Shown here one piece after another: positions 2,325 through 42,281 of a DNA stretch of 64,000 bases. The notes beneath the pieces are model-generated. The model was not told the origin of the DNA. It was given only the letters and a program-made list of their open reading frames with translations, and did no database searches. Position 1 is the stretch's first letter. Each line of letters opens with the position of its first letter. Source of the DNA: a virus. The stretch is taken from IMG/VR virus record IMGVR_UViG_3300031132_000332; one strand, 5' to 3'. The position numbers and the translations under genes are program-made.

Positions 2325-2353
2325 TTGATTTTGTCAGTGCTTCATGGTACAAT
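2325..2353 (+). promoter_or_regulatory. sigmaA promoter with PafBC/RecA-NDp element; likely leaderless ligA transcript
   Basis: TTGATT-N17-TACAAT. TTGTCAGTG(2331-39)-N8-TACAAT matches the tTGTCRgtg-N8-TAnnnT consensus. ATG lies 6 nt after the -10. Confidence 0.7.
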
Positions 2354-2359
2354 AGAACC

Positions 2360-4402
2360 ATGACTACAGACATGCGAGAGACTTATCTCAAGGACGTGAA
2401 CAAGGCGAAGGAAGCTGCTAAGGCTTACTACGTTGACGGTGCTGACTCCCCGCTTACTGATGACCAGTACGACCTTCTGGTTGAGCAGCTGGCTCGAGTC
2501 GGAGAGATGTACGGCTGGAACGAGCATGTTGCTCTCGTTGAGGAAGTTGCTGCTGGTGTTGCTGGTGGAGCAGGGGATGTCAAGCACCGCTCCCGTATGC
2601 TTTCCCTTGCGAAGGCTCAGAACTCTGATGAGCTGAACAAGTTCATCGGCAAGATGGAACTGCACTCCGCGAAGCTGCTTCTGGAACCGAAGCTTGACGG
2701 TCTTGCCATCGTTGCTCTCTACCAGAAGGGCAAGCTTGTTCAGGTTGCCACCCGCGGTGACTCCCGTACAGGGCAGAACGTCACTGCCCGTGCAAAGCAG
2801 GCAACCATTGAAGGACTCCCGCAGAGCATTGCTTACGACGGTGAGCTTGAAGTTCGTGGTGAGCTGTTCATCACCCGCACCCACTTTGAAACTGCTCAGA
2901 CTTTCCGCGCTAAGCAGGGACGCACCCCGTTCAAGAACCCTCGCAACGCTGTCTCAGGAACCATCCAGTCTAAGGACGTTACCCGCCTTGAAGGTCTGAC
3001 CATGACGTTCGGTGTGTACGACTTCATTCCGTACTCTGGTGCAGAGACCGAAGAGGACTCCTACACGAAGCAGCTTCAGGATGCTGGCCAGCTTGGCTTC
3101 ATCACCGCAGCTTCCCTCATCCCGAAGCTTGACACTACTACGGTTGAAGAGCAGGTCAACGAGTTCGGTGCTATCCGAAATGGTCTGGACTTCCCGACTG
3201 ACGGTGTTGTCGTGAAGGTTGACTCTGTTAATCTTCGTAAGCAGCTTGGTAACAGTGAGCGTCATCCGTACTGGGCTATCGCTTACAAGTACGAAGCAGA
3301 AATCAAGGAGACTGTTCTTCTCGGCATCACCCGTAATGTGGGTCGTACAGGAGCTATCTCCTACGTTGCGAACTTGCAGCCTGTTGAGCTTGCTGAGACT
3401 GAGGTTGCAAAGGCCACTTTGAACAACTCTCGCTTTATTGCTGAGCTTGACCTTCGCATCGGGGACACGGTTCTTGTTCGTAAGGCGAACGAAATCATCC
3501 CTGAAATTGTGAGCGTCAACCTGCTTGCTCGTGAAGGTAAGAACCTGCCGCAGTACGTTGCTCCGACCACCTGCCCGAACTGTGGTAGTGACTTGGACAC
3601 GGAAAGCAGCATCATCTGGCGCTGCCTGAACCCTGAGTGTGCTGTTGCAACCAGCATCATCCACGCTGTCTCCCGTGACCACCTTGACATTGAAGGTCTT
3701 TCCACTTCTCTTGTTGAGCGTCTTGTGGAAGAAGAGTACATCCAGGATGCAACTGACCTGTACGGTCTGAGCGTTGCGAAGCTTGCTTCCCTCCCGATGG
3801 GTCGCATCAAGCAGGACGGTACACCTGTTGTTCTTGGTGAGACTGTTGCACAGAAGCTGTACGACAACATTCAGGGTTCCAAGAAGCAGCCGTTGAACCG
3901 CGTTCTCAGCTCCCTTGGTGTTCGATTCCTCGGACGCACATTCAGCCGTCGCTTCGCTCTGCACTTCAAGAACTTTGACAAGGCAGTGAACGCGACTGTT
4001 GAGCAGATGCAGCAGGTTGACGGCGTGAAGGATAAGGCAATCTTCATTCGTGAGGGGCTGGACACTCGTCGGAACCTTATTGAGAAGTACCGTGCAGTTG
4101 GGTTTGAGGCGTTGAACGCTGACGTTACAGCAGAAGCTACTGCTCCTGCTGCCGCAGGTTCTGCGCTTCTTGCAGGCCAGAATGTTGTCATCACTGGTGG
4201 TGTTCCTGGATACTCCCGTAACGAAGCGAAGGAACTGATTGAAGACAACGGTGGAACTGCTGGTTCCTCTGTTAGCTCCAAGACTACACTGCTGGTTGCT
4301 CCTGCGGATGAGCGTGAAACCTCCAAGGCGAAGAAGGCAGCCAGCCTCGGTGTTCGCATTGTCACTCCTGATGAGTTCCTGAGTATGCTGGGTAAGGCAT
4401 AA
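2360..4402 (+). CDS. ligA: NAD-dependent DNA ligase
   Basis: EPKLDG adenylation motif, ATRGD, EVRGE, KNPRNA, DGVVVK, AIAYKY, Zn finger CPNC...C...C, HhH region, and C-terminal BRCT (VVITG...GSSVSSKTTLLV). Confidence 0.97.
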   Translation: MTTDMRETYLKDVNKAKEAAKAYYVDGADSPLTDDQYDLLVEQLARVGEMYGWNEHVALVEEVAAGVAGGAGDVKHRSRMLSLAKAQNSDELNKFIGKMELHSAKLLLEPKLDGLAIVALYQKGKLVQVATRGDSRTGQNVTARAKQATIEGLPQSIAYDGELEVRGELFITRTHFETAQTFRAKQGRTPFKNPRNAVSGTIQSKDVTRLEGLTMTFGVYDFIPYSGAETEEDSYTKQLQDAGQLGFITAASLIPKLDTTTVEEQVNEFGAIRNGLDFPTDGVVVKVDSVNLRKQLGNSERHPYWAIAYKYEAEIKETVLLGITRNVGRTGAISYVANLQPVELAETEVAKATLNNSRFIAELDLRIGDTVLVRKANEIIPEIVSVNLLAREGKNLPQYVAPTTCPNCGSDLDTESSIIWRCLNPECAVATSIIHAVSRDHLDIEGLSTSLVERLVEEEYIQDATDLYGLSVAKLASLPMGRIKQDGTPVVLGETVAQKLYDNIQGSKKQPLNRVLSSLGVRFLGRTFSRRFALHFKNFDKAVNATVEQMQQVDGVKDKAIFIREGLDTRRNLIEKYRAVGFEALNADVTAEATAPAAAGSALLAGQNVVITGGVPGYSRNEAKELIEDNGGTAGSSVSSKTTLLVAPADERETSKAKKAASLGVRIVTPDEFLSMLGKA

Positions 4403-4406
4403 GCAT

Positions 4407-4829
4407 ATGGGTGAAGTGTTGCCGATGCTGCGAGAGTACCATTTCAATCTTAGTGGTATTCTCAAAGCACGCACGCTTGACGAAGCTGTTGACAAAAAGT
4501 TCGGCCCTTCCTCAGTTCTGGGTATTGCACGGAGGAACCGAAACGGTGGAGGGCTGTTCCAAGTCTTCATGTGGGCTTCATCTGATGAGACTATTGTGAT
4601 AGATGAAGTTTACGTCTCCACAGGCGAATACGCGGGTTTTCCCAGCCAGACCGTCTACCCGTTGCCTGGCATCCCGAACTACGAGCAGGAGCGCTTACAG
4701 GGCCTCCTGGACTACATTGACAATCCATTCACCCCAGTGGAAACATTGGAACAGATTCGGATTGATGAAGAAGATGTTCCAGCCATCACAGAAGCGATAG
4801 AAGAATTACGCAATAACCCATTCCTGTGA
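4407..4829 (+). CDS. Hypothetical protein
   Basis: 140-aa ORF directly after ligA and followed by a hairpin. Confidence 0.6.
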   Translation: MGEVLPMLREYHFNLSGILKARTLDEAVDKKFGPSSVLGIARRNRNGGGLFQVFMWASSDETIVIDEVYVSTGEYAGFPSQTVYPLPGIPNYEQERLQGLLDYIDNPFTPVETLEQIRIDEEDVPAITEAIEELRNNPFL

Positions 4830-4879
4830 AATAGAGTGAGGGTTACCAACCAGATATGTTGGTAGCCCTCACTCTATTT
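4829..4879. terminator. Bidirectional hairpin terminator between convergent genes
   Basis: AAATAGAGTGAGGGTTACCAAC / GTTGGTAGCCCTCACTCTATTT with one G-U-compatible mismatch. Confidence 0.75.
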
Positions 4880-4889
4880 TGTGAAGTTC

Positions 4890-5609
4890 TCAAAAATTTT
4901 TCATTTTACCTGTCTTGTCCTCAGAGAAGCTGTACCATTCATTATCATCTCGAGCGAAAGCTGCAATTACTGGAATTTGCATTTCTTCGTAGACACTCAA
5001 GATAGCAGCCAACAGCTGTCCAGCGTCATCAAGCTTGTGAGCGCGTAATAGAAGTATGCCTCCTGGTGAACCCTCCAACAAGCTATACTCATTTTCCATC
5101 TTTTCGTAGACGATAGCCTGGAAATAGTGAATAGAGTCTATATCTAATTCCCCATCAAGTCCGAAGTCCATACCAAGTACATCTGAAATCTCGCCTGCTT
5201 GTTGGTCAATGAACAGTGATGCGAAATATGGCTTCTGGCGCGTTACGACAGTTTCCGCTGTGGCGAAAAAGCTGAGAGGGACAGGGAGAGATTCTCTATA
5301 CTCTTCTTTTAGCTTGCTGACATAAGCCACTATCAGGGTAGTATCTTGTAATATGCGGAGAAGCTCTTTTGCATCTGGTTTTTTATATGCTTTATCAACA
5401 TCTGCCCACAAATTACTTTTCTCAATATATAGGCTTACCATGCTATAAGGAATTGTATTGAGGGGCTGATATTCTAAAAGGTAATTGACGAGTTCTTTTG
5501 CCTGATTGAGAGTAATAGGTGAATGACTGTTCATCCATTTATCCATTACCTCTTCTGGAACATTTTCAATCTGAGTAAATTTACGTTTGCGTTTAAATGA
5601 ATTAAGCAT
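4890..5609 (-). CDS. Hypothetical protein (AT-rich island)
   Basis: 239-aa ORF with purine-rich SD region; TCCGATAA upstream on the minus strand. Confidence 0.65.
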   Translation of the reverse strand: MLNSFKRKRKFTQIENVPEEVMDKWMNSHSPITLNQAKELVNYLLEYQPLNTIPYSMVSLYIEKSNLWADVDKAYKKPDAKELLRILQDTTLIVAYVSKLKEEYRESLPVPLSFFATAETVVTRQKPYFASLFIDQQAGEISDVLGMDFGLDGELDIDSIHYFQAIVYEKMENEYSLLEGSPGGILLLRAHKLDDAGQLLAAILSVYEEMQIPVIAAFARDDNEWYSFSEDKTGKMKNF

Positions 5610-5635
5610 TCCCTATTCTTCCTCTTTTCATTCAC

Positions 5636-5684
5636 TTATCGGATGTTGAGAGAAAGTAAAGATTCCTTTCAGTATCGCCGATAC
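5636..5684. promoter_or_regulatory. Divergent pair of sigma28-like promoters
   Basis: Plus strand: TAAAGATT(5657-64)-N12-GCCGATAC(5677-84). Minus strand: TCCGATAA (5643-36). Confidence 0.6.
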
Positions 5685-5716
5685 TTTTACTGAGAGATTC
5701 TGATTTTAAGGTAACT

Positions 5717-6271
5717 ATGTATCCAGTAAAAAGACGGTATCGTAAACAAGTAGGGGATGTGTTTCTCGTACCCTATGATTTGGATGCAGAGTTTGAAGAC
5801 AATGAAAATGGTAAATATCTACCAAAGCCTACTGACCAAGTTATGATTGGACAGTATTTTTATAACACACCCACTGAGTCCGAATATTTAACCTTATTCA
5901 AAGGCAGCTATAGTTATAAAGAAATTAGCGATGAGCTTGTCTTTTGGGGAATGCAACACCCTATTGAAGTGGTAATGGGAGTATATGGAAGCCCTATGAG
6001 AAATTCCCATTTTCCATTCATTCGAAATGCGGAAGTATCTGCACTGTTGCGCAATCAACTGTACAGAACCCTTAATGACCAATTGCGCACATTAGATGGT
6101 GAAGTTTTTCAAGAGTACGTAACTGGTCATTATCCTGTTTGGGGTCATTCTACTCATTTTACAAGTTTTGTAGATGTAGCGCGGTTCCTCAATGGATTAC
6201 CAACACGATATGAGACGGGGATAGATAAGTTTAGGCCACATGTTAGTCAGGAGTTTTTGAATGCAGAATAG
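5717..6271 (+). CDS. Putative immunity protein (Imm26-like N-terminus)
   Basis: Begins KRRYRKQVGDVFLVP, resembling the Imm26 K.GD(I/V)F.(I/V)P start; located in the Rhs island. Family call is tentative. Confidence 0.4.
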   Translation: MYPVKRRYRKQVGDVFLVPYDLDAEFEDNENGKYLPKPTDQVMIGQYFYNTPTESEYLTLFKGSYSYKEISDELVFWGMQHPIEVVMGVYGSPMRNSHFPFIRNAEVSALLRNQLYRTLNDQLRTLDGEVFQEYVTGHYPVWGHSTHFTSFVDVARFLNGLPTRYETGIDKFRPHVSQEFLNAE

Positions 6272-7565
6272 AGAATTAACGCCTGAAGAGCGAGAACTCG
6301 TAGATAAGCGTTTCGGCCCCACTGATTATTTAGAGACCAAGCCAAAAAGAATAAGAAAAGCCCCTTTTGCGGACGAGCTATATCAACCTTCTGAATGGTC
6401 CACATATGTGCACAGTCAAAGACTGGATCATCTTGATAATAAAGAAGCAGATAGACTCAATCGTGAATTTATGCAATCAATTGACTACAGAATAGAGCAG
6501 TTTGAAGATTTCTTAGACAGACATAATATCACTGTTGATATTGCAAACTCCGACTATACTGAATTTGAATTGTTCGTGTTCAACAATATTGATCCACATG
6601 AAGAAGACAGATACGAAGACATGTGGTGTTCTCCTCTATGGGCTTCAATACTGGTAGATTTTGCTCTTTTAGTAGTGGATAGAAAACAAAAGGAACAGCA
6701 TCTGGATATTGAGTATCAAGTTCCTATACTTAAAAGAAATGCTAGGTATGATAAATTTATCAGACCAAAAGTTGGTCGTTGGACGTATCCTCTTTTTGGT
6801 GTTTTTGTGAGTTGGGCTGACGATGTTGCTTGTGGAGCATATACAATTTACCGTTATACTTCTTTAGCAATCTGGGTGCAACAGTGCTTAGAGAGTAAAT
6901 CTCCTGACGAAATTATCAAACCAAAACGCTTTCGGAAAGATGACTTTCAAGACAAAGAATATCCTGTGCATAGTGTTACAGAGCTTCCCGAGTATAAGAA
7001 CTCGCCTAAATCTCGTCAAAATTTTTCAGCATACATTTCAACTCGCAAAGTAGCTTTCTATGAATTTTGCAAGCGTCATGGCATTAGTGTTGATATTTCT
7101 ACTGGTGATTATGTAGAATTCGAAATATTTGCTTACTTCAATATTGATTTTGATAAAAACAATCAGACAACACCGACTCCTTTATGGAACTCCCTATTTT
7201 TAGATATAGTATTGATAACAGCAGAACATATTGCAACTACGGATGATGAGGTGAGGTGGTACCTTATCAAGAACGCTTCTTTACCCATATTGCAGCATAC
7301 AAAATTCAAATCAAAAACCTTCGACATAATCAGTGAGGTTCTTTGGTACGCGCATGTTGTAGCAAATAACAATGGTTATATTGCTCAGCCAAATACGCAA
7401 GGAAGTTTGCGAGATACTGTTTTAGAAGGCCACCGTAGATTACACAAACAGTATGGAAGGTTGGGACTTGATATATGGCCCTCATACCAGCCTCACATTC
7501 ACCTTCATTACTATGAAAACAAAGAAAAGAAAGACTGGTATTATTATGAGATTGAGTCCTGCTAG
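6261..7565 (+). CDS. Hypothetical protein with an internal domain duplication; candidate immunity protein
   Basis: FEDFLDRHNITVDIANSDYTEFELFVFNNID...PLWASILVD is repeated as FYEFCKRHGISVDISTGDYVEFEIFAYFNID...PLWNSLFLD. Confidence 0.7.
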   Translation: MQNRELTPEERELVDKRFGPTDYLETKPKRIRKAPFADELYQPSEWSTYVHSQRLDHLDNKEADRLNREFMQSIDYRIEQFEDFLDRHNITVDIANSDYTEFELFVFNNIDPHEEDRYEDMWCSPLWASILVDFALLVVDRKQKEQHLDIEYQVPILKRNARYDKFIRPKVGRWTYPLFGVFVSWADDVACGAYTIYRYTSLAIWVQQCLESKSPDEIIKPKRFRKDDFQDKEYPVHSVTELPEYKNSPKSRQNFSAYISTRKVAFYEFCKRHGISVDISTGDYVEFEIFAYFNIDFDKNNQTTPTPLWNSLFLDIVLITAEHIATTDDEVRWYLIKNASLPILQHTKFKSKTFDIISEVLWYAHVVANNNGYIAQPNTQGSLRDTVLEGHRRLHKQYGRLGLDIWPSYQPHIHLHYYENKEKKDWYYYEIESC

Positions 7566-7600
7566 ATGAAATCTGTATTCTTCTTAGAACGTAAGGTCAA

Positions 7601-8212
7601 GTGAGATTTATGAACAAGCCAGTTTTAGATTTTTCTGTTTTTCAGAAAAAAGTAGCTCAAGAGTTTATAGATATGGGAGCAAAAAATATGGACTATAATG
7701 ATGTAGGTTTTAGCCGCCTATTTACTAAATATCGAGATGAATATGAGAATCACATCTATACATATGCAGGTAAAACATTGCATCCTGGAGTTCAATTTAC
7801 TATTCCAGCAAAACACGATATCTTTTTAGATATAACACTGTTGGGATTCTCTGCTCATCCAACCGAAGAAACGAATGGTTTTTTGTTTACAGGAGCAAAA
7901 GGTCTAATTGATAATGGTGGAATGAAGCGAATGGTCAAATTATCATTGAACCAGTTCAAAACTTATTCTCCCCGTAAAACTACAATCAAATTCGTTGCGT
8001 CAAAAGAACCAGGACATCTTCTATTATTTCCGTCAATTCACGTAGATGAAGGCGCTAGCGAGAGTGTAGGATGGGGTGCAATGATTGAAAAATCATCCAC
8101 TTCACGTTCTCTTGAATTAGATTGCTCCATCAGTCACGAAAGACCAGATTTTACAGATGCTCATATTTTGTTAGAATGGTCAGAAGGATATGTGAAAAGA
8201 GAATTTTTTTGA
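7601..8212 (+). CDS. Hypothetical protein (AT-rich island)
   Basis: 203-aa ORF co-directional with its neighbours. Confidence 0.6.
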   Translation: MRFMNKPVLDFSVFQKKVAQEFIDMGAKNMDYNDVGFSRLFTKYRDEYENHIYTYAGKTLHPGVQFTIPAKHDIFLDITLLGFSAHPTEETNGFLFTGAKGLIDNGGMKRMVKLSLNQFKTYSPRKTTIKFVASKEPGHLLLFPSIHVDEGASESVGWGAMIEKSSTSRSLELDCSISHERPDFTDAHILLEWSEGYVKREFF

Positions 8213-8236
8213 ACATGAAAATATTCAAGCATTTAT

Positions 8237-8668
8237 ATGCACCGTTCTTGCAAGAGTGGAAAATTAGGAATACTTCCAATAGAAGAAGAGTTTGAGCATG
8301 TCTGGCTGTCGACGGTCTCGGAAAAGATTTATAGAATAGAGAGTATTCCATTCTTTTCCTACGACTACACATATCTTGATGAAGTAATGGCTGATACTTA
8401 TATGCTGGGAGAGGAAGAGATTCTTCTCATAAAAGCCATAGTGCAGCCTTCACCATACGTTGATTTTAGAGTGCACATTCTCAATGAAGAGGTTACTGAG
8501 TACATGTTGGCTCGCTTAGAAGCAGCTTATCTGAAAACTGAAAAATCATCTCAACGAATGTATGCTATTGCTGCCTTGCCGCATCAAATCGGGTCGTTAC
8601 AAGGGTTTTTAGAAAATGGTTCTAAGTTGGGTCATATTGAGTGGGAAATAGGAAGAAGCATATCATGA
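8237..8668 (+). CDS. DUF4265-like protein, candidate immunity protein
   Basis: EHVWLSTVSEKIYRIESIPFFSYDYTYLDEV resembles the DUF4265 E.(L/V)W....Y.(I/L)..(I)PFF....D.V pattern. Confidence 0.55.
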   Translation: MHRSCKSGKLGILPIEEEFEHVWLSTVSEKIYRIESIPFFSYDYTYLDEVMADTYMLGEEEILLIKAIVQPSPYVDFRVHILNEEVTEYMLARLEAAYLKTEKSSQRMYAIAALPHQIGSLQGFLENGSKLGHIEWEIGRSIS

Positions 8669-9249
8669 AGAACCAACAAAAACAACTTGATGAGCAGTCA
8701 TCAGAAATAACAAAAGAGTTTAGTTTTTGTGGCTTCGGCCACATACCATATTGTGAAGACCCTGTTCTGTCAAAAGATGGTTACGGTAACTGGGATGAGT
8801 ATCGACACAAGCTGGAAGAGCTAGTCTTATCCCAAAACATAGCTGATGCGATGCTATTAATAACTCAATTTGATGATGACAAAGATTACTTGAATTTAGA
8901 TGAAGTTTTTCTCCACACAATAGAAAGCCATCCTCAGTACCCGAGCGTAGAACTTTTTACGAACCGAGCCAGAAACAACTTACATATCAAAATGTTGGAA
9001 CGCTGTTTCAATGCTCAGAAAATTATTGAAGATAAATCTATACAAAGAGCTTACGATCTGATTACTGATGATTTCAAAAATCCAGATTCAGATAAGTTTA
9101 TAAAAGCAGTTCAATCTTCATTTGATAGTTTCAACAATCAAGAATGGTTTTTGATTCAGCTATACATGTTCTTGTTCTTTGACTGGGAAACAAAAGATGT
9201 AGATGAGAAGAGATTCAAAACGTTAATACGTGAAACCAACGCTAAATAG
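8665..9249 (+). CDS. Hypothetical protein
   Basis: ATG at 8665 overlaps the upstream TGA (ATGA coupling). Confidence 0.6.
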   Translation: MKNQQKQLDEQSSEITKEFSFCGFGHIPYCEDPVLSKDGYGNWDEYRHKLEELVLSQNIADAMLLITQFDDDKDYLNLDEVFLHTIESHPQYPSVELFTNRARNNLHIKMLERCFNAQKIIEDKSIQRAYDLITDDFKNPDSDKFIKAVQSSFDSFNNQEWFLIQLYMFLFFDWETKDVDEKRFKTLIRETNAK

Positions 9250-9288
9250 CTTGCTCTAAAACGTAAAAGTTATTCATATTGAAGAAAA

Positions 9289-9894
9289 GTGAAGTATATG
9301 GAACGATTTGCATACATAGACGGAGAACAAAACCCTTATGGGCAACAAGAGTGGTCTGAGGTTGACAGTCAATCTGAGATAACCAGAGTTGGAGGATATC
9401 CAACTGGGTTAGGGTACTTTGTAAACAACTGGCCACACATTGATTATGAAAAGACAGGAAATCTTGTTCCTTTAACTTTTACAGGGCAAGTATTACATGA
9501 GGGAAAAATGCTTTCGCTCTTCTCAGGTCTACCAGATGGATACCCGCTTGACCTTTACTCTGAAACTGACTCTGATACTGCAGTAATTGTCATAGGTGAG
9601 TATGTACCACATTGGATTATTATGAAGACCTTACCCAAAATGCAGGTGCTACCAGTGGTTTCAGCTCGGGCTTTAGCTCCTTCACTCATGCAAAATTTAC
9701 CAGCTATCAGCGCTGATTGGGCGTTCAGATTTGAAGATTTTTATGAAAAAGGTTATACCTTTATTTTTCAAATACCCTTCTACTTTTATTCCTCAACTGT
9801 GGATGAAGAAATTAATGTTGAATGGTCTGAAATCGAAACCTTTGTTTTCATCACTGCAAATGGTGAACCCATAGTTTTCTCTGAGAACTGGTGA
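9289..9894 (+). CDS. Hypothetical acidic protein (DUF1963/YwqG-like, tentative)
   Basis: RVGGYP...WP......PLTF.GQ pattern; paralogous to the next ORF. Confidence 0.5.
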   Translation: MKYMERFAYIDGEQNPYGQQEWSEVDSQSEITRVGGYPTGLGYFVNNWPHIDYEKTGNLVPLTFTGQVLHEGKMLSLFSGLPDGYPLDLYSETDSDTAVIVIGEYVPHWIIMKTLPKMQVLPVVSARALAPSLMQNLPAISADWAFRFEDFYEKGYTFIFQIPFYFYSSTVDEEINVEWSEIETFVFITANGEPIVFSENW

Positions 9895-9913
9895 GGGACG
9901 CTTAGGAGTTAGA

Positions 9914-10453: not shown

Positions 10454-10572
10454 AACGAATCGCTTTTTTGGTAGATTAGGAATTGCTTGCATCCGTAAAT
10501 TAAATATAGTTCGATGCACTTATTGAGCTGAATATCTGGACATAAACAAGTCTGAAAGAAAGTAAATAATTT

Positions 10573-10600
10573 TCAGGTTTTTCTCAGGTAGAGCCGATAA
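10573..10600 (+). promoter_or_regulatory. sigma28-like promoter of the Rhs gene
   Basis: TCAGGTTT-N12-GCCGATAA, close to the FliA consensus TAAAGTTT-N11-GCCGATAA. Confidence 0.7.
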
Positions 10601-10633
10601 ATCAATCAAACGCAGATATTTGGGGATTTATTC

Positions 10634-32003: not shown

Positions 32004-32005
32004 AA

Positions 32006-34140: not shown

Positions 34141-34142
34141 AT

Positions 34143-35096
34143 ATGATAAACACGATAGTGAGAAATAAGATGGATTCATTGAGTAGCCTTTTTCCTATCC
34201 TGAAATCATTTTCTAATGGCGACAAAATACAGAGTGTCCCCGATTCGTTGGCACATATGTCAGGATGGAAGAATGCATCGGAAACAGTGCGCTTAGGAAA
34301 GACTCAGACTGGCCATTTGGATTGGGACACAGGCAATCACCCGAACCTTATTCTGATGGGTAATGCTGGCAGCGGGAAAAGTGTTTTGCATAGAGCTATC
34401 TTCTACCACTGCTTGACCCAGAACAACGATTGGGTCTTCTATGGGGTGGACCCTTTCAGATTAGATACAGCGCCTCATAGAAAATATGAAAGAACTTTTG
34501 GAGGAACTGCAAGTGATGTTGAATCCTCTCTGAAACTTTTAGAGAGTATTGACTTACAAATACAAGAGCGTTATCAGTTATGGAGTCAGGAACATCAACA
34601 AGAAAAGTTCGACCTTGAAAAGCATTCAATGAAGTCAATAATGTTGGTCATTGACACATTTTATCCAACTTCCAGTGATGTTTTCGATTACATAAAGTCT
34701 CATCATTCAGATTATGCTCGAATTGTCAAAATCCGTGAGTTGTTTGCACGAATTGTAGAGCATGGTAGCAAGGTAGGTGTTCATGTTGTATGGACAGCTA
34801 TGGCGAGACCAGTTCCTCAGTTAGATAGTCAATTCATTGAGTATTTTGATGCAGTTATTACGACGAGTCGTATAGATTATGAGTCATCTGAGCAGTTCTT
34901 TGGCTCAGATAGAGCTGCAATCATTCCAGAGTACGGGATGAATGGGTTTGTCAGAGGAAAAGGATTGGCAAAATTCGGAGACCTCGTTGAAGAATTCCGA
35001 GGGTATCTTATTGATGATGAATCCGCTCAGTCTTGGGTAAAGGAACACGGCCAACATGCTGAACCTCAATTGTGGGCAGAGCTGAATAGCAAGTAA
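34143..35096 (+). CDS. FtsK-like ATPase domain protein
   Basis: HPNLILMGNAGSGKS; Walker B-like MLVIDTF lacks Glu; paralogous to the upstream gene including the final EP.(R/L)WAELN.K. Confidence 0.75.
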   Translation: MINTIVRNKMDSLSSLFPILKSFSNGDKIQSVPDSLAHMSGWKNASETVRLGKTQTGHLDWDTGNHPNLILMGNAGSGKSVLHRAIFYHCLTQNNDWVFYGVDPFRLDTAPHRKYERTFGGTASDVESSLKLLESIDLQIQERYQLWSQEHQQEKFDLEKHSMKSIMLVIDTFYPTSSDVFDYIKSHHSDYARIVKIRELFARIVEHGSKVGVHVVWTAMARPVPQLDSQFIEYFDAVITTSRIDYESSEQFFGSDRAAIIPEYGMNGFVRGKGLAKFGDLVEEFRGYLIDDESAQSWVKEHGQHAEPQLWAELNSK

Positions 35097-35108
35097 CTAT
35101 AACTATTG

Positions 35109-35159
35109 AATACCGTTGTAGGGAACAAGGCTTTTCCTCTTGTTCCCTACAACGGTATT
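35109..35159. terminator. Perfect 21-bp hairpin
   Basis: AATACCGTTGTAGGGAACAAG / CTTGTTCCCTACAACGGTATT. Confidence 0.75.
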
Positions 35160-35195
35160 TGCTGATATAATAGGCTATACAGATAACGGGAGCTA

Positions 35196-35864
35196 ATGAA
35201 TATGAGTAATGAGAATGCTACAGAATACATTGGGTACGAAGAGCCGAATACCAGTGTTTGGGTTCGTGTTCTTGCGACGTTTCTGATTGCAGGATTCACT
35301 GCTACTGCCTTAGGCGGTATGCTCTTATTTCTGTGGTTCGTCACTGCATTATTTGCATGGTTCGTTATTCCAGCAGGTTTTATTTACTTCATCATTGTCG
35401 CTATTATTGCTCCTATCAAACGAAACCAAGCGAAGAACGATTTGAAACATGGGGTACCTCAGTTTACGTTCGAACAGATTCAAGCAGCTGAATTCAAGGC
35501 AGGTTCACAAACGGCTTCCTTAGCAATGAACATCTACCTGTCGTTGATTGCAGTACTTTTCCCTGTTATCTATTTCGCAGGTAAGAGCGCTTCTTTTGAT
35601 GATAGTTTCTCTTTCCTCCTTCTTGTAATGGGAGGAGCGTTACTGGTTGCAGCGTTTTATGTTCCCTTTGTCAACGCTCCAAGTATTTACCGTAAACGGT
35701 TTCTGCAAGCTGAGGCATATGCGTTGCAGTATAAGACACCAAACTATAAGTGGGTCCGTGCGAATCGTATTTGGTCGTGGATTGTATGGGTCATTTACGG
35801 TGTAGGTGTGCCAGCTCTTTCAGTACTTGCTCTCAACGGTGGTATGCGTCTTCTTGACTCATGA
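35196..35864 (+). CDS. Multi-pass membrane protein
   Basis: About five hydrophobic helices. Confidence 0.7.
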   Translation: MNMSNENATEYIGYEEPNTSVWVRVLATFLIAGFTATALGGMLLFLWFVTALFAWFVIPAGFIYFIIVAIIAPIKRNQAKNDLKHGVPQFTFEQIQAAEFKAGSQTASLAMNIYLSLIAVLFPVIYFAGKSASFDDSFSFLLLVMGGALLVAAFYVPFVNAPSIYRKRFLQAEAYALQYKTPNYKWVRANRIWSWIVWVIYGVGVPALSVLALNGGMRLLDS

Positions 35865-35920
35865 ATAATGGTAGGAACCGATAATATGTAACTGTACATA
35901 GTTCGGTTCCTACCATTATT
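35864..35920. promoter_or_regulatory. 18-bp hairpin overlapping an ACCGATAA element
   Basis: AATAATGGTAGGAACCGA / TCGGTTCCTACCATTATT; CCGATA at 35878-83. Confidence 0.55.
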
Positions 35921-35925
35921 ATTTT

Positions 35926-36198
35926 ATGACTTCTAAACACCAACGTCTGCGTGATTGGATTCACCAGCAACATCCTGCTTTCCGTATAACATACAAAGCT
36001 GTTATCGCTATTGTCGGTTTCGCTATTGTGTTAGCGGGCATTGCGATGCTTGTGCTGCCTGGTCCAGGTGTGCTGACTATTCTTGCTGGTTTGGCACTGC
36101 TTGGTTTGGAGTTCCCATTCATCCAGCGGTTCAACTCTTGGTTAAAACAGAAAGCTATGCATCTGTGGAGGAAAGTTCGTCCTGTTCCTTCACACTGA
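35926..36198 (+). CDS. PGPGW-family small transmembrane protein
   Basis: IVLAGIAMLVLPGPG.LTILAGLALLGLEF. Confidence 0.8.
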   Translation: MTSKHQRLRDWIHQQHPAFRITYKAVIAIVGFAIVLAGIAMLVLPGPGVLTILAGLALLGLEFPFIQRFNSWLKQKAMHLWRKVRPVPSH

Positions 36199-36424
36199 AT
36201 AGGTCATGATTGAAGGCGCTTTGCGTGTCATGCTGATTCAAGTATTTACGTTTGAATGCAGCAAGGAATTCTTCATTTGGATTTTCTGAATCGAAGTCTT
36301 TGTCTACTTTGAATCCTTTGTACACTTCCATGACTTTTTCCCAGGGGAATTTGCCACTGTGTTCTTGTAACGCTGGAATAGCGTATTCAGCGAACTCTTC
36401 AACTAACTCTGTTTTCTCAGGCAT
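36155..36424 (-). CDS. Hypothetical protein
   Basis: ATG 36424 follows SD GGAGG; ACCGATAC upstream at 36462-55. Confidence 0.6.
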   Translation of the reverse strand: MPEKTELVEEFAEYAIPALQEHSGKFPWEKVMEVYKGFKVDKDFDSENPNEEFLAAFKRKYLNQHDTQSAFNHDLFSVKEQDELSSTDA

Positions 36425-36519
36425 AGTAGCCCTCCATTCGTTTCGTTGACCATTGTATCGGTTAATAGAAAATTCGGAGGCAACCACGATATTGATTGCC
36501 TCCGAATTTTTCCTGCAGC

Positions 36520-36714
36520 TTACTCCTGGTTGAGTCCTGCGAGGAACCCGTCCATGAAGATGGAACGGTTCTCATAAGTCAGAATGACGGAGAGAGGAAC
36601 ACCTTCTGATTCCTTCTTCGCAACATAGGCATCCCATGCCTGCCAGGTGGCATTGTGGACATCACTGGTGTACGGAGCGGTAACGGGACGCTGAATCTTG
36701 GTGCCAGTAGCCAT
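36520..36714 (-). CDS. Small hypothetical protein
   Basis: 64 aa, downstream of a good sigmaA promoter. Confidence 0.6.
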   Translation of the reverse strand: MATGTKIQRPVTAPYTSDVHNATWQAWDAYVAKKESEGVPLSVILTYENRSIFMDGFLAGLNQE

Positions 36715-36758
36715 AATAGGTTATATCTTCCTGTGTCAGGTGAATAAGTATATGGGCT

Positions 36759-36787
36759 ATCGTAGCACTGAGCAACCTGCCTGTCAA
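36759..36787 (-). promoter_or_regulatory. sigmaA promoter
   Basis: TTGACA-N17-TACGAT with extended TG. Confidence 0.65.
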
Positions 36788-36797
36788 CTGCTATCAG

Positions 36798-37640
36798 TTA
36801 GCAGCCGCCACCCATCCATTGGTGAGCTCGTGCATCGTCTTCAAGCCAGGCGTTGCTTTTCTGTTCAGGGCCGCTCATGAGACCTTTTTTCCATTGCAGG
36901 TAATGCCAATGCTCATGAGCGATAGTGGTTCGTAAATTACATGAAGGTACGTCAAACGCTTCTGGTGTGAGCGTGTAGAAATCATCTCCTGCGTTGTAGC
37001 AGCCCCATGCAATCTCTACTCCGTTCTGTACACGACAATGGTCAATTTTGAATGGGAACGGCTGACCTATCTCTTCTTGCAAACGAAGCACTTTCTGCTC
37101 ACGACTTTCATTAGCAGGGGTAGCGGCTTCGTTCAGCTCATCAACTTGGGTTGCCCAATTCTGGGTTCGTGTTTTCAAATCAGCAACAGCATTTGCTGTG
37201 ACAGTGTTCATGTCACTGATATCCTGTTTATATTGTTCAGGGTTCTGGTTGACCATGTTTCCAATATCTAAACTGCTAAGTTGGAACTGATCCAGAATAG
37301 CTGCATCTTTGTACTGCTGAATGAGAGCGGAAAGAGCATCATACTCATTGTTCACTTCTGCGGTGTTCGCGTGATTTTTATGCACAGGAGTAACAACTTC
37401 TGCTGCATTATTACCGGCTTGTTTGAGCAGAGCTGCATTTTCAGCGTAGGCTGAACCGACATCTTTCGCGCTGACTGTTTTAGGCGGTTCAGAATATGAG
37501 CCTTTCTGGGTAAGGTCAACACTTCCTGAGACCGTAAAAGCAACAACAACGGCAATTGTAGTGGCAATGAGTTTACGATGACGCATAGAAGAATGATCCT
37601 TATCAAGAATGAAAACAATGTTTCTTAGTTTATCAGACAT
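36798..37640 (-). CDS. Membrane-anchored/secreted protein with C-terminal HExxH metallopeptidase-like motif
   Basis: RHRKLIATTIAVVVAFTVSG anchor (true start may be ATG 37586), a helical stalk, and TIAHEHWHYLQ...E.DA. Confidence 0.65.
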   Translation of the reverse strand: MSDKLRNIVFILDKDHSSMRHRKLIATTIAVVVAFTVSGSVDLTQKGSYSEPPKTVSAKDVGSAYAENAALLKQAGNNAAEVVTPVHKNHANTAEVNNEYDALSALIQQYKDAAILDQFQLSSLDIGNMVNQNPEQYKQDISDMNTVTANAVADLKTRTQNWATQVDELNEAATPANESREQKVLRLQEEIGQPFPFKIDHCRVQNGVEIAWGCYNAGDDFYTLTPEAFDVPSCNLRTTIAHEHWHYLQWKKGLMSGPEQKSNAWLEDDARAHQWMGGGC

Positions 37641-37702
37641 TGACGGGAATAGAAAGGAAAAAATTGTTGTTACATCATTGACAACCCAGTAAAGGAGTCA
37701 AA

Positions 37703-38029
37703 ATGAGTGTCACAATTGACGGAACAGAAGCATTCACTGAGCAAATTAACAGTGCGGACAACAAAGACCAGCAGATTATCGTAGATTTCTGGGCAACATG
37801 GTGTGGTCCATGTCGTGCAGTGTCACCTATCCTCGATAAGATTGATACCGAGGACAGTAACGTAACTTTGCTCAAAGTTGATGTTGATGAGAACCCTGAG
37901 CTTGCTGCGGCATTCCAGGTTCAGTCCATCCCTACGTTGATGTTCTTCAAAGAAGGTCAGATGAACGCTAACCCTATCATCGGTGTTGCTCCAAAGGATG
38001 CTATCCAGAAGCACTACCAAACTGCTTGA
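37703..38029 (+). CDS. trxA: Thioredoxin
   Basis: VDFWATWCGPC...KVDVDENPELA...VQSIPTL; SD AAGGAG. Confidence 0.95.
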   Translation: MSVTIDGTEAFTEQINSADNKDQQIIVDFWATWCGPCRAVSPILDKIDTEDSNVTLLKVDVDENPELAAAFQVQSIPTLMFFKEGQMNANPIIGVAPKDAIQKHYQTA

Positions 38030-38067
38030 TGAGTAGCTCCGAATAGTATTCGGATGATGTAAGAAAG

Positions 38068-38102
38068 AAAAGGGAACCTGTTTGAATTACAGGTTCCCTT
38101 TT
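38068..38102. terminator. Intrinsic terminator
   Basis: AAAAGGGAACCTGT / ACAGGTTCCCTTTT. Confidence 0.75.
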
Positions 38103-38130
38103 CTCGTATCCGTGATAGAATAGGTGGATT

Positions 38131-39138
38131 ATGCTTCTACTGAACCTACTTACACGAGCTGCACCATACGGTTACCCTGAAACTGATGAGACTCGTCGGC
38201 TGGCAGCGCTCTGGGAAAAACATGTGGGGCCTGTTCCTATTGATGATTATGGAGATTTTGAAGACTTCTTCGAGCAGGCTGTCCGTTTGGATGCAGCTGT
38301 GAAGAGTGTTTCGCTTCCTGGCATCTGGTTGACAATCAACGGGAGTAAAGAGGCTAAAAACCTTGAATCAGGTGAGACTCAGCCTGCTGAGAACTTCAAG
38401 AACTCACCTCATTATGGTTTGCTGTCAACTCAAGATTTTTTGTTCCACAGCTCACCTGACGCTGTTCGTGACGCTCAAGTGGATAAGTACTGGCAGTGGG
38501 ATACGTTCCAGCGTTTCGCTGGTAGAGAAGTTATTTCGACTGGTTTCGGTAGCAGCATTCAAGGTAAAGACCTTATGAATGAAATCTTCACCTTGTATAA
38601 GACAGGCGTGGAACGTTTCTTCATCAAAGAAACGAAAACCAAAGCAGGTATTTGGGTTATTGAACTTGCTGAGAACCTCAGCTATGAAGAAGTGTACAAG
38701 ATTGTTGACGTAGAACTTGAATGGTCCCTTGTCCGAAATGAAGACAGGGAAGATTGTTTCCTCGTACAGCCTCATACCTCTATGAGGAACGAGTATCGTT
38801 TCTTCGTTGTAGATAATACTCTGGTTACAGGAGCTGGATGTGTTGAAGAGTTCACCCCTTTGAATAACCAGGCTCAATTTGATGCTCAAATGCGGGAGCA
38901 TCGTAATTGGAATCATGAGCCTATTACTTCCCAGCTTGAACTTCTTGGAAAGTACCGTAAATTTGCTGAGAACGTGGTTCGCCATCTCAAAGAGGAAAAG
39001 CCTGAAATCGGAAGCTATGTGCTTGATGTTGCACGTTCCATCAGTGGAGAACCTATGATTGTCGAGTTCAACTCCCTCTTGAACTCAGGATTATACGCTT
39101 CACAGCCCGCTCGGGTTGTAGCTGCTTTGGTAGAGTAA
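38131..39138 (+). CDS. ATP-grasp domain protein (R2K/DUF4343-like)
   Basis: FFIK..KTK, EYRFFVVD, YVLDVA, IVEFN....SGLY. Confidence 0.7.
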   Translation: MLLLNLLTRAAPYGYPETDETRRLAALWEKHVGPVPIDDYGDFEDFFEQAVRLDAAVKSVSLPGIWLTINGSKEAKNLESGETQPAENFKNSPHYGLLSTQDFLFHSSPDAVRDAQVDKYWQWDTFQRFAGREVISTGFGSSIQGKDLMNEIFTLYKTGVERFFIKETKTKAGIWVIELAENLSYEEVYKIVDVELEWSLVRNEDREDCFLVQPHTSMRNEYRFFVVDNTLVTGAGCVEEFTPLNNQAQFDAQMREHRNWNHEPITSQLELLGKYRKFAENVVRHLKEEKPEIGSYVLDVARSISGEPMIVEFNSLLNSGLYASQPARVVAALVE

Positions 39139-39229
39139 CCTCATAAGGGTTGTAATTCCTCTTCTAAACTGGTAGAGTGGATTCTTGTAAGAAGGTTTAC
39201 CTCATATTTAGTTCAGGAGAGAACGCATC

Positions 39230-39745
39230 ATGCAGAAGCTTAGGACCCCTTCGTTTGTCTATCATCTTTCGCTGACCGCGAAGGAAATTGCTCCTCAGCT
39301 GAGCGGTCTATGGCAGGCTATTCTCGCACTGACAGGTCTTGCCTATATTGGGAGTATTCTAGGAATCACTCAGGTTGTTTCTGCAATGCAGGATGCAGGC
39401 CAGCCGTATGGGCTTCCCCTTTTCGCCGCTGTGTTCACAGCAACTATTCTTGTCGGTTTTATCGCTCACAAGGCCCATCAGAGCTACCTCCGAGTTGGTG
39501 AGAAGCGAGTGAAGTCCCAGGTGAAGCTTGTTACTGCCGTCCTTGAAGACAGCGGGCATGATTTGAATGACACGCAGGTTGCTGCGCTGCTGACAGACGG
39601 ACAGTTCATCCTTGAAGAGATTAGTTATGGCGAGGTGCTGCGTACCGCGTACAACTTGAAGGAAACAGGTTCTCAGTGTGTTCTGACTCTGTACGTCTCA
39701 GACCTGCCAGGCAAGGCGCTCAATGGAAATCATCAGCGCTGGTAG
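39230..39745 (+). CDS. Two-TM membrane protein
   Basis: SD AGGAG; two hydrophobic helices; TTGTAA-N17-TAGAGT upstream. Confidence 0.65.
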   Translation: MQKLRTPSFVYHLSLTAKEIAPQLSGLWQAILALTGLAYIGSILGITQVVSAMQDAGQPYGLPLFAAVFTATILVGFIAHKAHQSYLRVGEKRVKSQVKLVTAVLEDSGHDLNDTQVAALLTDGQFILEEISYGEVLRTAYNLKETGSQCVLTLYVSDLPGKALNGNHQRW

Positions 39746-39753
39746 AATATCTC

Positions 39754-39815
39754 TTGCAAATGTCAGACCTGCATGGTACATTGATGAATGTACGAAATAT
39801 GCAGGTCTGACATTT
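39754..39815 (+). promoter_or_regulatory. sigmaA promoter with PafBC-type element inside a 17-bp inverted repeat
   Basis: TTGCAA-N17-TACATT; TGTCAG(39761-66)-N10-TACATT; arms 39758-74 and 39799-815 are perfectly complementary. Confidence 0.7.
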
Positions 39816-39831
39816 CTATTAAGGAGGAAAA

Positions 39832-40038
39832 ATGGTAGCCACCATTGAAAAAGATCAAGCAGTAAAGTTCCGTTACAAAAAGATCAGTGGAGAAGAAAAG
39901 ACTGTTGACCATTTAGTGATTGACAGAGTGTTCAGTAGCTCTGACGGGTATGAAATTGTCCAAGGATATTTGGAGGACGGGGAAGGTCGTTCATACCGTA
40001 GAGCAAACATGAAAGACATAGAAGTAATAGATCAGTAA
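39832..40038 (+). CDS. Stand-alone WYL-like domain protein (68 aa)
   Basis: VKFRYKKISGEEKT...VQGYLEDGEGRSYRRANMKDIEV matches the WYL (F.Y....G....RxF/YR.DRI) pattern; SD AAGGAGG. Confidence 0.6.
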   Translation: MVATIEKDQAVKFRYKKISGEEKTVDHLVIDRVFSSSDGYEIVQGYLEDGEGRSYRRANMKDIEVIDQ

Positions 40039-40044
40039 TACAAG

Positions 40045-40079
40045 TTGAGGGTGAAGCTTATTGCAAGCTTCACCCTCAA
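40045..40079. terminator. Bidirectional hairpin
   Basis: 15-bp stem TTGAGGGTGAAGCTT / AAGCTTCACCCTCAA between convergent genes. Confidence 0.7.
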
Positions 40080-40083
40080 TTAT

Positions 40084-40536
40084 TTAGTTTTCATCAATGA
40101 CTTTTACTCTTCGTGCACCAAAGTCGGCGCTCAGCCGTTCTTTTTGCGGGTTATTCTGGTTGATCCAACGGGTTGTTTTTCCTCGTTTGACAGACCTCCA
40201 TACTTCATCGTTACTGTCAACAATGACAGCTCCAATATTCAGGTTCCGAATTTCTCGTGCACTGGTAAGAGTGCGATGTAATCCTGCTCGCTTGTAATGG
40301 TCACCTTCAAGAGCGCGGAGAGCAACAACTTCTTCTACCAGTTCAGCTAAGAATACTCGTCCAGCAACAGCAATGTGAATATCAGCGAAGTTTTTACCTT
40401 CAAGGATAGTGATTCCATCCTCAGTATGCACACGAGCGCCATGAGGAGTGGGACTGGTAAGCCAAGAACTAGGGGTCAGCTTATTTCCTTCCGTCAGTTG
40501 ACTTCGCAACCTATTCAAGAATTCATCAGCTAACAT
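40084..40536 (-). CDS. Hypothetical protein
   Basis: SD AAGGAG; TGgTAGAAT upstream. Confidence 0.65.
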   Translation of the reverse strand: MLADEFLNRLRSQLTEGNKLTPSSWLTSPTPHGARVHTEDGITILEGKNFADIHIAVAGRVFLAELVEEVVALRALEGDHYKRAGLHRTLTSAREIRNLNIGAVIVDSNDEVWRSVKRGKTTRWINQNNPQKERLSADFGARRVKVIDEN

Positions 40537-40617
40537 TTTTGCTCCTTTTAGATAGGCTACTATTCTACCATATTGATTGTAGGTAGGAAACTCTAATCAA
40601 GTTTTTAATACAAAAAC

Positions 40618-40646
40618 TTGCATTTACTTTCTGCTTGTGTTATAGT
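40618..40646 (+). promoter_or_regulatory. sigmaA promoter
   Basis: TTGCAT-N17-TATAGT with extended TG. Confidence 0.6.
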
Positions 40647-40795
40647 TATTTTTACGACAGTAGTTCAAGGTTAACAGAACGCCTGGCTCTTGGATTTCCG
40701 GGTAGTTGGTGGCTCATATCCACCCTGTCGGCCAAACTTTTATGAAATACCGTTACATCAGAGAGAAATGCAGCGATGAGAAGGGGAGAAAAATT

Positions 40796-42205
40796 ATGTC
40801 AACTGTTATCGATGCTCGTAACCGCTTGAAGGCAAGCCTGGTCCGTCGTGAGTCCACTGTGAATGTTGCGAAAGCTATTCTTGACCTTGGCTTTCTTCCT
40901 GAGGACTCTGAGCTGCATACTAAGCTTTCTTCCCTTTCTTATCGTGGTACTTATGGTTACTACGATGCTGTCTACGATGACTATGACCGTGTTGACTCTG
41001 CTGATGACCAGTTGGAGACATTCGCTGTATTGTTCCCGAACGTCAGCATTGATGAGGCTCTGTCTGTTACCGTTGACCACCTCTCATATGTTTCAGTTCA
41101 TCAGGATTTGATTACTTCAGCTTTGTACTCACTGGGAGTACCTTCTGGTTGGAGTGCGAATGATGCTCTGCGTAAGCGTTTTTCCCTGGATTGGACTGTA
41201 GGGTCAGCATCCAGCAAGAAGGCTTTCGTCAAGCGTCTTCGTTTCTTGAACTCTTTTGAGGAGAAGCTGGGTCGTGTCTTTGACACTCTTCAGCTTCGTC
41301 ATGCTCAGATGCAGGCGAAGAGTCGCTTAGCGTACGCTGTTGACGCTGAGAAGCTTGACGATATTTCGTTGTCATTCGTTGCATACCTTGCGGCTCGTGC
41401 GAACCGTCGTTCGCTGTTCATGCTTGGTGGGCAGTCAAAGGCGTTCGATGATGTCAGTGATGCATTGCGAGACATGATTCCTGCTGATGCTAACTGGGAG
41501 CAGATTGCTTATGTTTCACCGACAATGAACGTGTTTGAGCGTCTTACTCAGGATGCTCTGGGTCGTCTCATTGGTAAGTTCCACAGTGAAATGACAGTTG
41601 CTGCAAATCAGCTGGGCCAGTTATTCCCGACCCTTCCTGTCCGCATGCGGGCTGAAATGGTAATGGTGAAAGGTGTTGATAGCTCTCGCTGGAATGCTTA
41701 CGCTGGTGCATTGAACACTATGCGCTCCGCCTGGATTTCTGCAACCATTGCTGCTGGCTTGGATTCAGTGCTGGATAAGTACTTACCTGGCAAAGCTCCT
41801 CGTTTGATGGCAGCTGACCTTGTATGGTGGGCACGTAATAACGGCCAGGAGCTCCATGAGGACACTCGCATGTTCTCTAAGCTTCCGTATCCTTGGGAAG
41901 TCATCAGCGGCGAGAAGAAGCTCAACCGTGCGAAGATTCTCAGTGTTGCTCGCAAGGCAAACGTAACTAATGTTGATGAGACAGGTTGGGTTGGTCCCCG
42001 CACTGGCGTAATCTCCGAAGTCGCTGCTGCTGAGCCTATCACTGTGCACGGCATCGTGGTTTCTGACCCGAACCTTGCTGTGATGCTTCGCAAGGCAGGA
42101 GCGTTCTCTGCTAAGAAGTTCTCTTATGTGGAGGATTTGACAGCGGAGGTCTGGGATAAGCAGGAGTCAACAATTGGTGATAAAACCTACGTGGTTGTCA
42201 ACTGA
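40796..42205 (+). CDS. Hypothetical protein (~470 aa)
   Basis: Strong codon bias like the core genes; ATG 40796 follows GGGGAG. Confidence 0.75.
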   Translation: MSTVIDARNRLKASLVRRESTVNVAKAILDLGFLPEDSELHTKLSSLSYRGTYGYYDAVYDDYDRVDSADDQLETFAVLFPNVSIDEALSVTVDHLSYVSVHQDLITSALYSLGVPSGWSANDALRKRFSLDWTVGSASSKKAFVKRLRFLNSFEEKLGRVFDTLQLRHAQMQAKSRLAYAVDAEKLDDISLSFVAYLAARANRRSLFMLGGQSKAFDDVSDALRDMIPADANWEQIAYVSPTMNVFERLTQDALGRLIGKFHSEMTVAANQLGQLFPTLPVRMRAEMVMVKGVDSSRWNAYAGALNTMRSAWISATIAAGLDSVLDKYLPGKAPRLMAADLVWWARNNGQELHEDTRMFSKLPYPWEVISGEKKLNRAKILSVARKANVTNVDETGWVGPRTGVISEVAAAEPITVHGIVVSDPNLAVMLRKAGAFSAKKFSYVEDLTAEVWDKQESTIGDKTYVVVN

Positions 42206-42206
42206 G

Positions 42207-42243
42207 TAAGAGGGGAAGAACTAAGAAAGTTCTTCCCCTCTTA
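42207..42243. terminator. 16-bp hairpin terminator
   Basis: TAAGAGGGGAAGAACT / AGTTCTTCCCCTCTTA followed by T-run. Confidence 0.75.
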
Positions 42244-42252
42244 TTTTTCGAG

Positions 42253-42281
42253 TTGCAGATGTCTGAGGGGTGTGATAGGCT
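42253..42281 (+). promoter_or_regulatory. sigmaA promoter with near-consensus PafBC element
   Basis: TTGCAG-N17-TAGGCT; TGTCTG(42260-65)-N10-TAGGCT. Confidence 0.55.

Follow-up and report, generated by a model that had tools for sequence, protein, structure and literature searches.

Candidate PafBC-type promoters upstream of ligA and a small WYL-domain gene on a giant phage-like replicon

PafBC promoters and the ligA and WYL-gene promoters of the window

In Actinobacteria, DNA damage is answered chiefly through the activator PafBC, which senses single-stranded DNA (ssDNA) and drives a LexA-independent response. SOS/LexA boxes carried by temperate phages and plasmids likewise wire mobile elements to the host damage response. 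Here we describe two promoters with a PafBC-like box, upstream of the DNA ligase gene ligA and of a small gene encoding a stand-alone WYL domain, in a 64,000-nt stretch of DNA from an IMG/VR virus record (IMGVR_UViG_3300031132_000332, positions 1-64000; hereafter the window). The window was compared with relatives recovered by protein searches (loci numbered with the prefix L), and about 100 kb of the gene content of this family was seen.

The published PafBC consensus, tGTCgg(N10)tA(N3)T, consists of a -26 element with a GTC core, and has no -35 element (PMC8635444). PafBC-dependent (RecA-NDp) promoters, which work by "sigma adaptation", are known from Mycobacterium and other Actinobacteria (PMC8635444, PMC11804915, PMC8223512). 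Further ssDNA-sensing WYL regulators are DriD of Caulobacter, SiwR of M. smegmatis, and CapW/BrxR of defence islands (PMC9186387, PMC10693628, PMC11662680, PMC9122601). A search of the literature revealed no account of a PafBC box in use at phage promoters.

The ligA promoter of the window has the layout TTGATT-t-TGTCAG-N10-TACAAT (2325-2353), followed after 6 nt by the ATG at 2360; written in the RecA-NDp form it is TTGTCAGTG-N8-TACAAT (2331-2353). The promoter of the small WYL gene reads TTGCAA-a-TGTCAG-N10-TACATT (39754-39782). A preliminary description had assigned the PafBC element to these two promoters and to that of an rIIA-like gene, and all three strings are indeed found where it placed them (ligA, 2331-53; WYL gene, 39761; rIIA-like gene, 42260). 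The nine other sigmaA promoters that it listed as lacking the box (699, 36787, 40618, 44614, 44711, 54587, 56197, 57446, and 59586) all have -35 and -10 hexamers and no TGTC at this place. The assignment stood for ligA and the small WYL gene, which match the consensus in a conserved element at the N10 spacing, and was given up for the rIIA-like gene, where the TGTC is not conserved.

Both promoters share with PafBC promoters a GTC-core element (TTGTCAGTG at ligA and aTGTCAG at the WYL gene), with TGTC[AG]G(tg) placed exactly 10 nt 5' of TAnnnT in an asymmetric motif of fixed orientation. Moreover, the start codon often lies 6 nt past the -10 in a leaderless arrangement, and the targets include genes of DNA metabolism (ligase and dCMP deaminase). 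The absence of a -35 element is not seen in the window, where TTGATT and TTGCAA stand 17 bp from the -10 in both promoters; it is seen in several relatives (L107, L109, L092/L097, and L093/L104). Other differences from PafBC promoters are that the carrier is a giant phage-like replicon rather than a chromosome, that the only target conserved throughout is a free WYL domain rather than a repair enzyme, and that cellular actinobacterial ligA genes lack the box. The kind of promoter would thus be a known one, whereas its carrier is unusual, and two features set it apart: a -35 has been added, and the conserved target encodes a stand-alone WYL protein.

The likeness to SOS/LexA boxes is that the promoters of a mobile element contain a site belonging to the host damage response. 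The factor predicted here is an activator acting through a promoter element, whereas LexA is a repressor that sits on an operator, and the proposed signal, ssDNA, would act by direct binding to a WYL domain rather than through RecA-stimulated cleavage of LexA. A LexA/SOS-box reading was rejected, as no palindromic SOS-type box fits when judged by eye. The likeness to DriD, SiwR, and CapW/BrxR lies in the WYL fold of the small protein; the operators of DriD and CapW are palindromic, unlike the box described here.

The same box occurs in actinobacterial DNA outside this family. The genome of Oerskovia (Micrococcales) contains 11 TGTCRGTG-N8-TANNNT sites compared to none in the control, and because about half of these are TGTCAGTG, the TGTCAG form is native in Micrococcales. 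The Microbacterium phage Pumpernickel (NC_073468.1, 18281-18319; L106 981-1020) has TTGCGT-t-TGTCGG-N10-TATATT followed after 6 nt by an ATG, that is, the same composite geometry and leaderless start in a phage whose actinobacterial host is known. This box, which is not annotated as a regulatory site, precedes the leaderless gene 50, and the site is repeated near 184421; the two copies are probably one site duplicated in the terminal repeat. Pumpernickel differs from the family described here in having a single site, in front of an unrelated 82-amino-acid protein. Related large actinophages lack this site, and the notion that large actinophages often carry PafBC boxes was rejected on the counts for Cece, Zooman, and Peregrin given below.

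Spacing, conservation, and turnover of the box

In the whole window, the motif of the preliminary description has five matches compared to 1.46 in dinucleotide shuffles (p ~0.02), and the published TGTC[AG]G form has three compared to 1.0 (p ~0.09). Two of the five matches lie inside open reading frames (ORFs), as background would give. At the fixed offset within the ~12 promoters, base composition predicts ~0.005 matches, and two were observed. The excess over shuffled sequence was marginal in the window alone, and across relatives the motif emerged as a peak at one spacing. When the window and nine non-redundant relatives (197 kb, both strands) were searched for TGTC[AG]G-Nx-TANNNT, 14 matches were obtained at x = 10, compared to zero to four at any other spacing from 5 to 15 and to one in a reversed control. 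Eleven of the 14 N10 matches are directly upstream of genes, and all gene-proximal sites are spaced N10.

The box upstream of the small WYL gene is the most widely kept. The sequence aTGTC[AG]G-N10-TAnnnT precedes this gene in every locus of all three clades (the window, L091, L095-L099, L092, L093, and L100-L104). The WYL proteins of different clades are 44-48% identical and the DNA flanking the promoter is beyond alignment, while the box is retained. The LigA homologues, which are 56-78% identical and encoded in syntenic loci, have the box at the same offset in four of six lineages when promoters are aligned on the -10 (the window, L008, L107, and L109). Its form is TGTCAG in L008 (LigA 78% identical) and L109 (56%) and TGTCGG in L107 (66%), where TGTCGGTG-N8-TATAAT is the textbook form. 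The ligA gene is leaderless in all six lineages. Comparison of these promoters suggests a turnover series, with box only in L107 and L109, box plus -35 in the window and L008, and -35 only in L009. Conservation in homologous promoters, on which the assignment of the preliminary description depended, was therefore borne out at all WYL loci and in most ligA lineages and failed at the rIIA-like gene.

The -35-less promoters of L107, L109, L092, L093, and L104, and that of the L093 dCMP deaminase gene, each contain the box; the L097 WYL gene and the L104 gene for a 400-amino-acid protein also have -35-less promoters. Promoters that lack the box have a good -35 or an extended -10. The exchange can be followed at a single gene. 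The orthologous gene for the 400-amino-acid protein has the promoter TTGAAT-N17-TATAAT in L093 (~7840-7870, minus strand), L100, L102, and L103, with no box in L093, whereas in L104 (2554-2575, minus strand) the -35 is lost and TGTCGG-N10-TACAAT is present instead. A similar comparison is offered by the dCMP deaminase gene, which in clade C (L093, 21525-21597; also L094) is preceded by two tandem boxes, TTGTCAGTG-N8-TATTCT and TGTCGGTA spaced N9. The dCMP deaminase gene of the window (57521) has a plain TTGCAA-N17-TATGCT promoter. These sequence comparisons support the view that the box is under selection across the relatives and that, in several of these, it takes the place of an absent -35. 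This complementarity of box and -35 is the logic of PafBC sigma adaptation.

The promoter of the rIIA-like gene consists of TTGCAG (42253-42258), one a, TGTCTG (42260-42265), N10, and TAGGCT (42276-42281). The -35 (TTGCNN) and the -10 are kept in five of five relatives. The TGTC is not kept: TGTCTG of the window is TGTCAT in L091, is shifted by 1 nt in clade C, and is absent from L092 and L104. Moreover, TGTCTG falls outside the R class of the consensus TGTCR, and the rIIA promoter of the more distant L113 is plain. By its sequence, the rIIA-like promoter is an ordinary -35/-10 promoter outside the box-bearing set.

The small WYL protein and its carrier

The small WYL gene encodes a protein of 68 amino acids, of which 10 clusters are known, all on these replicons. 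An AlphaFold2 model (pLDDT 90) has five strands, and the entire chain forms one barrel. The best Foldseek matches of this model are the WYL domains of DriD, PafBC, BrxR, and CapW (TM 0.65-0.74), with DriD as the top structural match at 25-27% identity, and comparison with the PafBC structure 9fnd gave TM 0.73-0.74. Pfam support is weak, with WYL matched in seven and WYL_2 in four of 11 members at E-values to 2e-4, and the window's own copy is below threshold. A Sac7d/Sso7d-like reading reached a profile match of E 0.09 and was set aside, as the fold search favoured WYL. On this model, the protein is predicted to have the WYL fold (PF13280; an Sm-like SH3 barrel), and the "WYL-only" label of the preliminary description proved apt. 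Compared with the wHTH-WYL-WCX architecture of the regulators, the protein lacks both the winged helix-turn-helix (wHTH) and the WCX domain; because neither is present, it is not a transcription factor of the DriD/PafBC/CapW type. No match to the small WYL protein was found among phage records.

An interrupted palindrome surrounds the spacer and -10 of this gene's promoter in the window. As RNA it folds at -39 kcal/mol (z -8.7) in the window and at -45 kcal/mol (z -10.8) in L091 (7424-7480), where a compensatory G>A / C>T change is seen. The palindrome begins 14 nt past the end of the upstream gene (its stop codon), with TTTCTATT on its far side; it may be the terminator of that gene or a binding site (second operator) for another factor. 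It is limited to the window's clade, being absent in clade B and small in clade C, and because it is clade-specific it does not explain the conserved box of the WYL gene.

The window is part of a phage-like replicon of ~880 kb (about 0.9 Mb). Proteins identical or nearly identical to those of the window are encoded on contigs of 878,612-883,042 bp in several assemblies, syntenic relatives sit on contigs of 510-858 kb, and protein searches placed LigA relatives on contigs of 0.4-0.8 Mb. To our knowledge, the largest phage genomes are ~735 kb, and this replicon, if viral, would be bigger. DNA of the window is present in phyllosphere, leaf-litter, and plant metagenomes. Phage-like genes include rIIA and rIIB, nrdE/F/I, and genes for thioredoxin, dCMP deaminase, a RecE-like exonuclease, a homing endonuclease, SNF2, and methyltransferases; additional content comprises Rhs, pilin-like, and DUF285 paralogues. 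No tRNA, ribosomal, or virion genes were seen in the ~100 kb. No close relative turned up in phage collections, whether by megablast to 50,697 phage records or in INPHARED, and in IMG/VR rIIA had no relative and LigA had distant ones only.

Several lines of evidence suggest that the host is actinobacterial. TAnnnT peaks exactly 6 nt before start codons, at 16 of 197 genes compared to ~3 at other distances; the starts in this peak in the window are 2360, 18596, 23060, 50581 (minus strand), and 59574. Some 8% of genes seem to start without a leader, a usual trait of Actinobacteria. NrdF is nearest to mycobacterial NrdF2 (423 bits) and Corynebacterium R2F (410 bits), compared to 266 bits for B. 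subtilis, and NrdE shows the same pattern of affinities. Among the matches listed, the best named LigA relatives are from Streptomyces and Oerskovia, and no cellular LigA above 40% identity occurred among the 600 candidates listed (GTDB). The best phage matches of rIIA and RecE are to Microbacterium, Rhodococcus, and Propionibacterium phages. Judged from these gene affinities and the leaderless starts, the host of the replicon is most likely an actinobacterium.

Readings of the box and neighbouring features

We consider it fairly probable that the ligA and small-WYL promoters are PafBC-type promoters, read by an ssDNA-loaded activator of the PafBC class on an actinobacterial phage-like replicon. 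The sequence match, fixed spacing, conservation, and alternation of box and -35 described above carry this reading. TGTC[AG]G at -28 to -23, 10 nt 5' of TAnnnT, would be bound by a wHTH-WYL activator of the PafBC class together with ssDNA, and the activator would link this DNA with the housekeeping sigma factor at its region 4, recruiting RNA polymerase with SigA. The amounts of ligase and of the 68-amino-acid WYL protein would then rise with ssDNA, whether this comes from DNA damage or is formed as the element itself replicates or infects. The -35-less promoters of the relatives would be reliant on the activator. On this reading, the window's lineage has gained its -35-like hexamers, which probably give basal sigmaA transcription with a PafBC-dependent boost, and the window's two promoters, with -35-like hexamers and extended -10 elements, are probably dual-mode.

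Several observations weigh against this reading. The enrichment in the whole window is weak and not convincing. Both window promoters have a usable -35 and an extended -10, such that PafBC is perhaps dispensable. The ligA box is lost in two of six lineages (L009 and L108), and the box of the WYL gene in the window's clade is one arm of a strong palindrome, possibly with a function of its own. Among 80 cellular actinobacterial ligA loci, none has such a box within 400 nt, and the large actinophages Cece, Zooman, and Peregrin have zero to one matches, not above controls. The cellular loci bear on a further idea, that the box was imported with a host ligA, which was rejected because it occurs in 0 of these 80 loci.

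Alternatively, the replicon might encode its own PafBC-like wHTH-WYL activator to read the box, in a self-contained regulon that does not tap host PafBC. The replicon is WYL-rich, with the 68-amino-acid protein and the protein in the rIIB position, and ~100 kb of the family has been seen of a replicon of ~880 kb. However, no HTH-WYL gene is present in the window or the relative loci fetched, the lone wHTH protein is a 104-amino-acid HTH_34 protein beside pilin-like genes, and the box matches exactly the one native to the actinobacterium Oerskovia. We regard this alternative as unlikely.

A second alternative is that the contigs of 0.5-0.9 Mb are chromosomes of an uncultured small-genome bacterium, actinobacterial or associated with actinobacteria, and that the boxes form its own PafBC regulon. 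Sizes of 0.5-0.88 Mb recur across assemblies, ligA, radA-like, nrdEFI, and thioredoxin genes are cell-like, and no capsid, portal, or terminase genes were seen. Against this, the ~100 kb contains no tRNA, ribosomal, or other translation gene, the matches listed include no cellular LigA above 40% identity, and the rIIA and rIIB pair, the RecE-like and homing-endonuclease genes, and the tandem paralogue arrays are present. On balance, we consider a bacterial chromosome improbable.

That the TGTC hexamers are incidental in sigmaA spacers, or part of a palindrome serving as terminator or as operator of a dimeric repressor, seems very improbable: on paper the -35 and extended -10 of the window promoters need no activator, the whole-window enrichment is marginal, the WYL-gene box lies in a -39 kcal/mol hairpin after a stop codon, and the TGTCTG of rIIA does look incidental, but the spacing peak is specific to N10, box and -35 are complementary, the asymmetric motif always faces the gene, and the box persists without palindrome and -35 (clades B and C, L107, and L109).

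If the PafBC-type reading is true, a very large phage-like element reads the host ssDNA alarm to time or boost the expression of a ligase and of a free WYL domain, and a mobile element exploits, and perhaps feeds back on, the LexA-independent damage response. A broader proposal, which we hold to be doubtful, is that phage-like replicons of Actinobacteria of 0.5-0.9 Mb captured the host PafBC ssDNA switch and that the 68-amino-acid WYL protein dampens PafBC, together with WYL-controlled defence regulators such as CapW/BrxR, by serving as an ssDNA sponge or an anti-activator. Were this so, the virus would have a counter-measure whose expression is turned on by the same signal that it quenches. 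Among the relatives, one and the same gene can have a -35-type or a box-type promoter, and this natural turnover is useful for the study of sigma adaptation.

Table 1. Positions of promoter elements and genes in the window
Feature	Position	Strand	Remarks
-35-like hexamer TTGATT, ligA	2325-2330	+	17 bp from -10; in window, L008, L009; absent in L107, L108, L109
-26 element TTGTCAGTG, core TGTCAG 2332-2337, ligA	2331-2339	+	exact match to RecA-NDp tTGTCRgtg
Extended -10 TGGTACAAT, hexamer TACAAT 2348-2353, ligA	2345-2353	+	-10 6 nt before ATG in 6/6 ligA lineages
NAD-dependent DNA ligase LigA, 680 amino acids, leaderless	2360-4402	+	Pfam adenylation, OB, Zn-finger, HhH, BRCT
-35-like hexamer TTGCAA, small WYL gene	39754-39759	+	absent in clades B and C (CTAACA, AGCCGA)
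-26 element TGTCAG, small WYL gene	39761-39766	+	conserved in all loci, three clades
-10 hexamer TACATT, extended TGG 39774-39776, small WYL gene	39777-39782	+	promoter reading, alignment on -10
Interrupted palindrome around spacer and -10	39760-39813		arms 39760-39774 and 39799-39813; inner arms ~39776-39795
Predicted stand-alone WYL-domain protein, 68 amino acids, no HTH	39832-40038	+	AlphaFold2 model, Foldseek
rIIA-like promoter TTGCAG-N17-TAGGCT with TGTCTG inside	42253-42281	+	ordinary sigmaA-type; PafBC box unsupported
rIIA-like GHKL ATPase, 738 amino acids, GTG start 42329	42329-44545	+	Pfam HATPase_c_3; start follows P0121
WYL-containing protein, rIIB position	44792-46171	+	C-terminal WYL, Pfam 6.7e-12; own TTGACA-N18-TAGAAT promoter

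The gene labels used in the preliminary description agree with the encoded proteins, in that LigA has all domains of an NAD-dependent ligase and the rIIA-like protein is a GHKL ATPase that matches phage rIIA. The latter is best matched, among phage proteins, by rIIA-like proteins from phages of Microbacterium and Rhodococcus (2e-36 to 6e-40), and the gene that follows rIIA in relatives of clades B and C matches PF26926 (Phage_T4_rIIB). The GHKL ATPase N-domain, the similarity to rIIA, and the adjacent rIIB that characterize phage rIIA are all found. The WYL-containing protein in the rIIB position of the window has no match in the 50,697 phage records.

A conserved block, TTGTTAGAGAGAAAC(A)CCCC, lies just 3' of the rIIA -10 (42282-42304) in the window, L091, and L092, and another conserved sequence occupies the rIIA leader of clade C. 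This block may act as an element of the leader RNA or serve as a site to which a protein binds. In the distant relative L113 (rIIA 32% identical; contigs of 625-885 kb), no box is present in 22 kb. Nine tandem paralogues resembling ADP-ribosyltransferase exotoxins (PF03496) lie upstream of its rIIA homologue (L113, 1-7802), and long arrays of paralogues of ~200 amino acids lie downstream.

Elsewhere in the window, two long ORFs overlap on opposite strands at 51333-52110. The plus-strand ORF (51376-52110) is called an ABC-transporter ATPase in relatives and is translationally coupled to a gene for a 524-amino-acid protein at 52107; the minus-strand ORF is probably spurious.

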